This document shows, piece by piece, positions 5,847-8,008 of a stretch of 64,000 nt of DNA. The translations under genes and the position numbers were made by a program. Within the stretch, counting starts at the first letter, position 1, and every line of letters starts with the position of its first letter. The stretch lies in NCBI RefSeq assembly GCF_000026545.1, contig NC_011601.1; one strand, 5' to 3'. The DNA comes from Escherichia coli O127:H6 str. E2348/69. GTDB taxonomy: Bacteria > Pseudomonadota > Gammaproteobacteria > Enterobacterales > Enterobacteriaceae. The notes beneath the pieces are model-generated. The model was not told the origin of the DNA. It saw nothing but the letters and a program-made list of their open reading frames with translations, and ran no database searches.

Positions 5847-5868
5847 TTCGTTATTCAACGAGACGTAA

Positions 5869-5896
5869 AAACGCCGACCAGTGGTCGGCGTTTTGC
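5869..5896 (+). terminator. Intrinsic terminator of the rpsF-priB-rpsR-rplI operon
   Basis: aaaaacgccgaccagtggtcggcgttttgctttt: 9-bp stem, 3-nt loop, T-tract. Confidence 0.8.
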
Positions 5897-6206
5897 TTTT
5901 AAGTGATAAAAACCGCAGAAACAGACGTTCCCTCCATAAATCTCTTGTTATTCCTTTTATAAAAAGTTCGCAGTACCCATACCTGGCCCCCAGCCTCGCC
6001 GCTGGTAGTTCGTGTCATGTTTTTTACGCGTAAAACACGACAAAAGCATCAATACAGCGATCGTCTCCCTTGTATGATAATAAAAACAATATGTTATATA
6101 TGAATGTGCTGTTATTTTATTGTTTTTATATATAAAAGGATAAAATATCATCACTTTCGTAATCTTGAACGCTTTGCAGGTGCGTTCAATCCAATAAATG
6201 CTAATA

Positions 6207-6227
6207 TTATGGCTATCATAGCCATAA
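6207..6227. promoter_or_regulatory. 21-bp perfect palindrome TTATGGCTAT-C-ATAGCCATAA about 20 bp upstream of the HTH gene start; candidate autoregulatory operator
   Basis: Read directly from the sequence; flanked by two 22-bp direct repeats (about 6125-6146 and 6226-6247). Confidence 0.5.
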
Positions 6228-6247
6228 AAAGATAAAATATTATCACT

Positions 6248-6727
6248 ATGGGTAAAAAAACAGCACCGTTACTCCCTTATACGAATCAGATGCTTAGTGA
6301 ATTTGGTGAGCGGCTGAAACTTGCTCGTTTACGACGCAGGCTTACCGCAAAGCAAGTTGCTGAACGTGCTGGGATGTCGCCAATAACATTGCGCTCTCTG
6401 GAGTCAGGAAGTGCAGGGGTCACGATAGGGGCATATTTGTCTGTGATGCAGGTTTTGGGCCTGGAAACGGATTTAAATAAGCTTGCAGCTGAAGACGACT
6501 TAGGGCGTCAGCTCCAGGATTCCCGTTTGATTAAAAAAAGAGGGCTTTCTCGTTCATCAGGTAAAAATGAAGAAGGTATTCAGACAGACCCTTTTCAAAC
6601 GAGGTATGAGAAAGAAGGTTTACTCACCACGGATTTAACAGCACTGGCAGAAGGCTCAACGCCATCTATTACAGGAGAAACATCAACCTCTCTTGCAGCA
6701 CTATTAAAACCGATAAAAAACCGTTAA
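6248..6727 (+). CDS. Xre/Cro-type helix-turn-helix DNA-binding protein with long low-complexity C-terminal tail; HipB-like regulator of the downstream split-kinase module
   Basis: 159-aa ORF; N-terminal [32 protein letters not shown] is a classic Xre HTH; first gene of a three-gene co-directional cluster. Confidence 0.7.
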
Positions 6728-6740
6728 AAGGAAATTAATT

Positions 6741-7001
6741 ATGGCATTAATCGGAGTGTATGCGGATTGGGAAGGCCTGGATGGTCCGGAGCGGATTGGT
6801 TATTTACACAGTCGCCGCACTCGGACGCGTGAGATATTTGAGTTTGAGTACGATAAAAAGGCGCTTGCAGATCCTTCACTTAATTTCATTCAGTTAGATC
6901 CTGAAATAATGTTGTATGAGGGAGCACAGTACCCAATTCCTCCAAAGGATAAATTTGGTGCATTTAGTGATTCCTGCCCGGATCGTTGGGGCGTATGCTA
7001 A
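6741..7001 (+). CDS. HipA N-terminal subdomain-like small protein (HipS-like putative antitoxin)
   Basis: 86-aa ORF with AAGGA 8 nt upstream; contains ...FGAFSDSCPDRWG, resembling the conserved motif of HipA N-terminal domains; stop overlaps the next start (TAATG). Confidence 0.55.
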   Translation: MALIGVYADWEGLDGPERIGYLHSRRTRTREIFEFEYDKKALADPSLNFIQLDPEIMLYEGAQYPIPPKDKFGAFSDSCPDRWGVC

Positions 7002-8008
7002 TGAAGCGTCGTTTTGAGAGGGATATTCGAGACGGGTTATGTGATAAAGACTCCCACCTTTATGAGTCTGATTATCTACTAGGTGTTCATGATCTTTATC
7101 GGGTTGGGGCTCTTCGATACAAACGTGAAGACGCTGGAGAGTTTCTTGATAATCGCATTGATGTTGCAGCCCCACCATTTACCGAAATAGCGAGTCTGGA
7201 AAGGGCTAGCCGGGCAATTGAAGAAGATCCTGATAATAAAGAGCTAATGGGGCAAAAATGGTTAAGAATGCTAATCGCTCCGGGGGGATCATTAGGGGGG
7301 GCACGTCCGAAAGCCAGTGTTGTTGATGAAGCTGGGCATCTCTACATCGCTAAATTTCCCAGTGTAAAAGATGAGTATGATGTTGGTGGATGGGAAATGG
7401 TCGTTAATGCACTTGCTGTTGGCTGTGGACTGAATGTTGCACCTGCTCAGGCGCATAAATTTGCCAGCAATTACCATTGTTTTATGGTTCGTCGTTTTGA
7501 CCGCACTAATGCGGGAAGGCGTCTGCATTTTGCTTCGGCTATGACACTAACCAGGCATCAGGATGGTGAAGATGCCTCTACAGGTGTGAGTTATCTGGAA
7601 TTAGCAGATGTTCTTATCAGGCATGGCGCGCAGACTAATACTGATCTTAAGGAACTCTGGTCCAGGATTGTTTTTAATATTCTTGTTTCTAATACCGATG
7701 ACCATTTACGTAATCATGGATATATCTTGATACCGGGAAAAGGTTGGCGGCTTTCTGAGGCATATGATTTGAATCCTGTTGCCAGGTCTGACGGTCTAAA
7801 ACTCAATATTACAGAAAATGATAATGCACTTGATTTGGAATTAGCTCGAGAAGTTGCGGAGTATTTTCGACTTGGTTTGACAGAAGCAGATGACATTATT
7901 GCTAATTTTAGAGGGATTGTCAGTCAGTGGCGAATCATTGCCGAGCGTCTTCGATTACCTGGTCGTGAGCAAGAGTTAATGGCAGAGGCGTTCAGGGGGG
8001 CAATTTAG
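7001..8008 (+). CDS. HipA-family Ser/Thr kinase core (HipT-like putative toxin)
   Basis: 335 aa from ATG 7001 (ORF 6986-8008); Gly-rich loop GGSLGGARPKAS, catalytic-loop-like VSNTDDHLRNHG and downstream AYDLNP at HipA-like spacing. Confidence 0.65.
   Translation: MKRRFERDIRDGLCDKDSHLYESDYLLGVHDLYRVGALRYKREDAGEFLDNRIDVAAPPFTEIASLERASRAIEEDPDNKELMGQKWLRMLIAPGGSLGGARPKASVVDEAGHLYIAKFPSVKDEYDVGGWEMVVNALAVGCGLNVAPAQAHKFASNYHCFMVRRFDRTNAGRRLHFASAMTLTRHQDGEDASTGVSYLELADVLIRHGAQTNTDLKELWSRIVFNILVSNTDDHLRNHGYILIPGKGWRLSEAYDLNPVARSDGLKLNITENDNALDLELAREVAEYFRLGLTEADDIIANFRGIVSQWRIIAERLRLPGREQELMAEAFRGAI

Follow-up and report, generated by a model that had tools for sequence, protein, structure and literature searches.

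HipA kinases are the founding persistence toxins, and few Hip modules have been studied: several hipBA modules of clade I, HipBST, and YjjJ (HipH). Here, we describe a HipB antitoxin with a long C-terminal region and the HipA-type kinase gene behind it, both located in a window of 64,000 nucleotides (nt) from Escherichia coli O127:H6 strain E2348/69, the window being the whole stretch of DNA that was analyzed. Long HipBs of this type, usually 149-185 amino acids (aa) in length and encoded directly upstream of a HipA-type Ser/Thr kinase of about 422 aa, form a family which is widespread (about one fifth of complete E. coli genomes and many species of Pseudomonas, Burkholderia, Serratia, and Erwinia) and experimentally almost uncharacterized; no experiments on it were found in the searchable literature. 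Among the Hip kinases at large, seven of the eight clades other than clade I are without an experimentally analyzed module in Table 1 of Gerdes et al. (2021; PMC8262856).

Described HipB Proteins and Their Kinases

Among the clade-I HipBs listed in Table S1 of the same survey, fifteen have 87-119 aa and one has 206 aa, and many of those with 87-107 aa end, after a short variable stretch, in a conserved amphipathic [IVL]D[IL]DxΦΦ motif followed by basic residues (PMC8262856). Measured against these, the protein in the window (159 aa), whose tail an earlier note on this DNA had called unusually long, is long for a HipB, whereas within its own family its length is ordinary. HipB of E. coli K-12 (3DNV; PMC3376134) resembles it in the order of hipB followed by hipA and in the fold of the kinase, and the unstructured C-terminal end of the K-12 protein has a regulatory role. 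This stretch is described as a Lon degron (PMC3376134) and once more as a Lon target (PMC4150777), while the very C-terminus contacts HipA according to Gerdes et al. (2021; PMC8262856). Unlike the protein in the window, K-12 HipB has only 88 aa and a short tail. HipB of Shewanella oneidensis MR-1 (4PU3/4PU4; PMC4150777) is likewise an XRE-type helix-turn-helix (HTH) antitoxin encoded upstream of a HipA kinase, with a C-terminal segment that is ordered on HipA. In free HipB this segment is flexible, and a hydrophobic pocket of HipA is where it becomes ordered; both HipA and HipB touch DNA (PMC4150777). However, the tail of the S. oneidensis protein is short, whereas about 67 residues follow the folded core of the long HipB, where an L-A-x-L-L motif with basic residues stands behind a spacer of 31-160 aa. 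Nor does the long HipB have the aromatic C-terminal anchor of these two proteins (Trp88 in K-12; Gly95-Trp96-Tyr97, the last residues of the S. oneidensis protein): residues 76-163 contain no Trp at all, and the conserved positions are instead L149, L152, and L153.

The kinase has the same fold as the HipA of 3DNT/3DNV (Foldseek E ~1e-14). In structural alignments its identity to the HipA proteins of K-12 and S. oneidensis is 16-19% (16-17% for S. oneidensis; Foldseek E ~1e-13 to 1e-14). A phmmer search with it against the PDB reached HipT only (E ~2e-8), and did not reach K-12 HipA at E <= 1e-3. The antitoxin scored 16.6 bits against NCBIfam PRK09726, the K-12 HipB equivalog (cutoff 79), and 30.3 bits against TIGR03070, the Y4mF-type couple_hipB model (cutoff 71.65), so that it falls below the cutoff of both. 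As to placement in a clade of the Hip Tree, no member of the family was found by accession or sequence words among the Table S1 entries listed in the available part of PMC8262856.

A true member of the family is present in the PDB as HipB of Pseudomonas fluorescens 2P24 (9U9G, released 2026-04-01), which has a long tail and is 62-63% identical in the core (profile E = 1.7e-43). Of the 153 residues in this crystal entry only 77-85 are modeled, and as a structure of HipB alone it does not reveal the role of the tail; a literature search found no paper for this entry or for the P. fluorescens 2P24 HipBA. Finally, HipBST (7AB3-5; PMC10627512) comes from the very strain considered here and has a related kinase core.

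Architecture of the C-Terminal Region

Judged from the alignments, the tail of the long HipB consists of three parts: a conserved helical extension, a hypervariable spacer of about 40 residues, and a conserved short linear motif. The database search gave 2362 homologues at E <= 1e-3. Many of them, from Salmonella, Serratia, Yersinia, Erwinia, Pectobacterium, Burkholderia, Azotobacter, and Stenotrophomonas, match over the full length and are 56-71% identical, and two alignments, of 33 and of 87 sequences, gave the same architecture. The translation of the open reading frame (ORF) at 6248..6727 (+ strand, 159 aa) exactly matches the sequence quoted in the earlier note. There, 6490-6727, which is residues 81-159 plus the stop codon, had been set apart as a low-complexity, disordered tail behind an HTH domain placed in roughly the first 75 residues. 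The position of the domain agrees with the Pfam matches HTH_31 and HTH_3, which lie at residues 18-75. The conserved core extends beyond it: residues 76-96 are part of this core and not of a disordered tail, with D83, G86, L89, and D91 invariant in the 87 sequences, Q90 conserved at 90% or more, and helices predicted at 73-82 and 84-100 in an AlphaFold2 model of HipB alone. In the linker that follows (residues 97-138), no column of either alignment reaches a 50% consensus. Conservation then returns in residues 139-158 (GTTSAxLAALLKPxKKP), where L149 and L152 are invariant and T145, L153, K154, and P155 are conserved at 90% or more. This motif is made up of a T/S-rich cap, an amphipathic L-A-x-L-L turn, and a basic K-P-x-K-K-P stretch.

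Genomic loci were collected from one genome per species (80 retrieved plus that of ATCC 11775, 81 in total). The motif, in the general form [ST][ST]x[SD]-L-[AS]-x-L-[LIF] followed by a stretch rich in K and R, is present in 78 of the 81, from Enterobacterales to Burkholderia and Pseudomonas; of the other three, one is a truncated ORF, one lies at a contig end, and one is a divergent orphan. Enterobacterales and Burkholderia have the version GTTSAxLAALLKP, Pseudomonas has DFPLNTHSLSNLLTKKK, and several Betaproteobacteria have GGFSSAxxLAxLI. The mean net charge after the motif is +3.1. The linker in front of it varies between 31 and 160 aa (median 43). Two Betaproteobacterial homologues (L073, 3001-3843, and L079, 3001-3714) have a linker of about 140-170 aa built of tandem 12-residue repeats (EALPTEQLRKAI-like), and since the motif is kept in them despite this expansion, the sequences suggest that linker length is free to drift. 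At the other extreme stands a natural "mini-linker" variant from E. coli (P0018, 109 aa), in which an in-frame deletion of residues 76-129 (window 6473-6634) between the repeats ETDL and TTDL has joined the HTH almost directly to the C-terminal motif.

The neighborhood of the gene is conserved as well. As expected of a HipBA module, the XRE-type HTH gene lies upstream, and the tight operon is conserved across genomes: an intact hipA of 419-428 aa, with 60-82% identity to the E. coli allele, follows the long hipB in 62 of the 81 loci, at a 2-nt gap or a 4-nt overlap. Conservation of the kinase is much higher than that of the linker in the antitoxin. The other loci end with the contig, keep a remnant of hipA, or have hipB as an orphan.

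The description of the tail as low in complexity did not survive measurement. The Shannon entropy of the tail, 3.68 bits, is close to the 3.80 bits of residues 1-75, and the fraction of S, T, E, K, and G is 0.45 in the tail and 0.37 in residues 1-75. Windows of 12 residues at or below 2.2 bits, the trigger of SEG, are absent from the tail and occur only in the first HTH helix. No family in Pfam, NCBIfam, or PADLOC covers the tail, PADLOC matching the generic HTH part only; Rfam gave nothing above the gathering score for the tail region, and Tandem Repeats Finder reported there only a trivial AAAACCGATAA repeat at the end of the gene. The idea of a separate small HipS-like gene in place of a tail was rejected: in every homologue the tail forms one chain with the HTH, and the other frames have no ORF of 40 aa or more that overlaps 6490-6727. 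A likeness of the motif to the beta-clamp pattern QL[SD]LF or to the SspB XB motif was also considered, and the patterns do not appear to fit.

Predicted Folding of the Motif on HipA

Canonical type II antitoxins such as Phd and CcdA have an N-terminal DNA-binding domain and a disordered C-terminal region that folds on the toxin. The long HipB departs from this type in two respects: most of its disordered region is a spacer that is not conserved, conservation being limited to some 20 residues at the end, and the toxin may be contacted by the HTH core too, as it is in other HipBA complexes. The intact E. coli alleles were modeled with AlphaFold2 as a single chain, HipA-(GGGGS)8-HipB, on a multiple sequence alignment (MSA) in which 29 rows paired HipA with HipB and a further 76 held diverse HipA homologues without a partner. 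The model has a mean predicted local distance difference test score (pLDDT) of 86.1 and a predicted template modeling score of 0.75. HipA itself stands at a pLDDT of about 97, the HTH core of HipB at 82-96, and residues 99-138 of HipB at 36-49. In the motif the values rise again, to 84 for residues 139-148 and 94 for residues 149-158, with a short helix at 146-150. As a control, HipB was modeled alone, with 87 sequences in the deeper MSA; here the pLDDT is 78-87 in the HTH core, below 50 in residues 99-145, and 52-57 in residues 141-160. Within AlphaFold2, the motif becomes ordered only when HipA is present, and the linker is disordered in either case. As an experimental hint from a homologue, about half of the free HipB chain is unmodeled in 9U9G. 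The motif is thereby predicted to fold upon binding, being disordered when free and ordered with the toxin (52-57 against 84-94). Of the roughly 80 residues which had been taken as disordered, the description fits only about 97-138 (pLDDT <50), since residues 76-96 are conserved and helical and residues 139-158 are conserved.

The reading that we favor, and to which we give slightly better than an even chance, is that the long HipB presents a short C-terminal motif on a disordered spacer, and that this tethered motif folds onto HipA. By analogy with other HipBs, the HTH core would dimerize, probably through the extra helices at 73-100, and bind operator DNA, while the spacer would serve as a flexible tether. 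The terminal motif would be disordered in free HipB and would fold onto the cognate HipA, adding a second contact that strengthens or completes capture of the toxin; docking might act by inhibiting catalysis or by raising affinity, and may also hide the tail from proteases. The docking place might be on HipA or on a composite surface of HipA and the HTH. That docking takes place in cells, at whatever site on HipA, and that it neutralizes the kinase is inferred from the predictions. At the level of the family, the proposal that the tail contributes to kinase neutralization is supported by computation, namely by the conservation of the C-terminal 20 residues across distant Proteobacteria and their HipA-dependent ordering, which match the S. 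oneidensis precedent (PMC4150777).

The principle of an antitoxin C-terminus folding onto its toxin is already known. The long HipB differs from the known cases in its long non-conserved spacer, in the lack of a terminal Trp, and in a motif of the L-x-x-L-L type with a basic stretch. Going by the sequences, a tethered C-terminal motif may be a general feature of HipBs which is exaggerated in the long-HipB family. If a tethered motif of 20 residues does control the kinase, L149, L152, and L153 would provide a testable handle on toxin release, the motif would be a peptide lead for activating or inhibiting the kinase, and the half of the HipB chain that is missing from the 9U9G model would be explained.

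Several points weigh against the folding of the motif onto HipA. The contact between the two was read from the difference in pLDDT only, the two proteins were artificially fused into one chain, and conserved amphipathic peptides are prone to be over-docked by AlphaFold2. Mutual information between the motif and HipA in 62 pairs was dominated by clade structure and is uninformative; a single HipA column, A224V, is both fixed in the subclade with an F-x-x-L-F motif and found nowhere else, and it is not counted as evidence. Six of the seven orphan hipB loci without a trace of hipA still carry the motif, which points to either recent loss of the toxin or a second, HipA-independent role. Moreover, E. 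coli hipB alleles that have lost the tail by a frameshift in an A7 run at codons 95-97 occur fairly often (110 sequences in one cluster of such variants), so that the tail would seem dispensable, at least where the toxin is also gone.

The orphan loci bear on an alternative role of the tail as mainly a proteolytic control element. Linker and motif would then be recognized by Lon, ClpXP, or an adaptor, and HipB would be unstable unless protected. A HipA-independent partner such as a protease would explain why the motif persists where hipA is absent. The analogy is with K-12 HipB, which provides the precedent (PMC3376134; Lon target restated in PMC4150777), and the linker is both predicted to be disordered and unmodeled in 9U9G. 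This role is also compatible with docking on HipA, since docking would mask the degron. However, no known degron consensus was identified, and the motif sits inside a basic stretch and not at the very end of the protein, which itself varies. Nor would a pure degron model predict that the motif becomes ordered with HipA in AlphaFold2. On balance, we consider a mainly proteolytic role unlikely.

Upstream Region and the Basic Stretch

Downstream of rplI and in front of hipB lies an AT-rich leader (6132..6247, + strand), which its repeats mark as a candidate HipB operator region. It holds two copies of a 24-nt direct repeat, the second of which abuts the hipB ATG, and a perfect palindrome (Table 1). 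A simple scan of the + strand of this leader found no sigma-70 consensus. Directly after rplI there is a strong hairpin resembling an intrinsic terminator (5868-5894, 12 bp with 7 GC pairs), which implies that hipB would have its own promoter in the 350-bp AT-rich spacer.

With candidate operators spread over about 115 bp, a long arm could bridge them, and the basic C-terminal motif might then serve DNA binding or autoregulation rather than toxin binding, acting as a flexible arm on operator-flanking DNA or on the HTH dimer. The mean net charge after the motif and the contacts that both HipA and HipB of S. oneidensis make with DNA would agree with such a role. Against it, AlphaFold2 does not dock the motif on the HTH core when HipB is modeled alone (pLDDT 52-57). 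In addition, the invariant positions of the motif are hydrophobic (L149, L152, L153) and not basic, as is typical of a protein-protein motif, while the basic residues differ in number and position. We regard this possibility as highly improbable, and folding of the motif onto HipA remains the reading that we prefer for the family.

State of the Module in E2348/69

Three independent assemblies of the E. coli E2348/69 (O127:H6) chromosome are 100% identical to the window over the 2-kb region around hipB. The locus has rplI on one side and a gene for a major facilitator superfamily transporter on the other, and it was found in 1046 of 5426 complete E. coli genomes, in every case on the chromosome. 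In RefSeq, hipB and the downstream hipA of E2348/69 are both labeled as "frameshifted" pseudogenes. The alleles of ATCC 11775 are intact and encode an HTH protein of 163 aa (WP_000516892.1) and a HipA family toxin of 422 aa (WP_001173915.1). A nucleotide alignment of the window with ATCC 11775 over 860 bases showed only two differences, one missing A and one missing G. Among the records listed, the region spans 2003 bases in the 17 other E. coli records and 2001 in the window, so both extra bases are present in all of those others.

The missing A changes the end of HipB from ...KPIKKPLKGN* (163 aa) to ...KPIKNR* (159 aa), NR taking the place of KKPLKGN. In terms of residues, K158 becomes N, P159 becomes R, and LKGN is lost, so that the basic end of the motif is trimmed; the intact frame would have reached its stop at 6736-6738. 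The missing G acts on hipA. Intact alleles of hipA encode 422 aa with the HipA_C domain, whereas in the window the gene is split by the -1 frameshift into a fragment of 86 aa, which by itself has no Pfam match, and one with the HipA_C match (Pfam E = 5.7e-47). The N-terminal subdomain is thereby separated from the kinase core. Where the 86-aa ORF stops, its TAA shares bases with an ATG that is in frame with the kinase core (TAATG, 6999-7003), which yields an arrangement of 86 + 335 aa.

Because hipB and hipA are both frameshifted, the hipBA module of E2348/69 is probably decaying, and the HipB tail of this strain probably has little or no function left, the simplest reading being that no toxin remains for it to control. 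Any role of the tail in kinase neutralization within E2348/69 is therefore doubtful. Decay is seen elsewhere as well. Long hipB genes stand as orphans, with no hipA within 3 kb, in seven loci (L007, L046, L053, L058, L064, L065, L081), and in four others (L017, L025, L059, L060) nothing but the 5' end of hipA is left. Loss of the toxin gene has thus happened more than once, in keeping with the frameshift in E2348/69.

That the tail of E2348/69 is a functionless relic of a pseudogene pair, its sequence persisting because decay is recent, is in our view fairly probable. The RefSeq labels and the comparison with the intact ATCC 11775 alleles agree on both frameshifts, and decay has recurred independently in tail-less E. 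coli hipB genes and in the orphan hipB genes and hipA remnants of other genera. Nevertheless, the hipB frameshift alters the last residues only, so that HTH and linker are untouched and the motif is largely preserved, and the complete kinase core ORF, with its ATG overlapping the preceding stop, may permit residual expression of a split kinase. A relic in one strain would also leave the conservation of the motif across the family unexplained, for which its predicted folding onto HipA is the reading preferred above. In annotation, the locus of E2348/69 should be read as a module in decay and not as a second hipBA that works.

The split invites comparison with the HipBST module of the same strain, since an 86-aa fragment followed by one of about 337 aa resembles HipS and HipT (335 aa) in geometry. 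HipS has about 103 aa. In HipBST, however, the split is ancestral and HipS, not HipB, is the antitoxin, whereas the intact relatives of the gene in the window encode a single kinase of 419-428 aa and the split is due to a strain-specific loss of one G from a run of five. Unless expression is shown, we treat the likeness, which is one of sequence layout, as a coincidence.

A more far-reaching reading, which we hold to be distinctly unlikely, would make the C-terminal motif rather than the HTH core the principal inhibitor of the kinase. The motif would be a tethered plug or pseudosubstrate in the substrate or ATP site of HipA, that is, a HipS-like function on a disordered leash, with linker length tuning the effective concentration of the inhibitor. 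The three poly-A tracts of hipB (see below) would then be a switch that uncouples repression from neutralization, and the frameshift in E2348/69 could yield a still-active HipS/HipT-like split kinase through TAATG coupling.

Coordinates and Sequence Variants

Table 1. Position of the features of the hipBA locus in the window, with the evidence or remark for each.
Feature	Position	Strand	Evidence or remark
24-nt direct repeat ATAAAAgGATAAAATATcATCACT, copies 92% identical	6132-6155 and 6224-6247	+	Repeat search
Perfect 10+10 palindrome TTATGGCTAT-c-ATAGCCATAA	6207-6227	+	Repeat search
hipB-like antitoxin ORF, 159 aa	6248..6727	+	Frameshift allele of 163-aa protein
Conserved N-terminal arm, residues 1-14 (starts M[AG], ends [LM]L)	6248..6289	+	Alignments
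XRE-type HTH domain, residues 18-75	6299..6472	+	Pfam HTH_31 E = 6.2e-11, HTH_3 E = 1.9e-6
Conserved helical extension, residues 76-96	6473..6535	+	Conservation and predicted helices
Hypervariable linker, predicted disordered, residues 97-138	6536..6661	+	Alignments, pLDDT
Conserved C-terminal short linear motif, residues 139-157	6662..6718	+	Homologues, pLDDT
A6 homopolymer (A7 in intact alleles)	6715-6720	+	-1 frameshift; ATCC 11775 alignment, RefSeq note
hipA 5' fragment, 86 aa, N-terminal subdomain	6741..7001	+	Ends at TAA made by the frameshift
G4 homopolymer (G5 in intact alleles)	6988-6991	+	-1 frameshift splitting hipA
hipA 3' fragment, 337 aa (ATG 6995) or 335 aa (ATG 7001)	6995..8008	+	Complete HipA_C kinase core

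The hipB gene contains three poly-A (Lys-Lys) tracts, at 6252-6258, 6534-6540, and 6715-6720, which are hot spots for slippage. Among natural E. coli variants, one is frameshifted at codons 3-4 (P0003), others have lost the tail through the tract at codons 95-97 (P0013, P0112, and P0027, the last with 110 member sequences), and the ending ...KPIKNR of E2348/69 recurs in another background (P0004). In the orphan locus of Erwinia rhapontici (L007, 3001-6513), the place of the kinase is taken by a gene about 200 nt downstream of hipB whose product has more than 930 aa and a P-loop motif (Walker A-like GAGKS).

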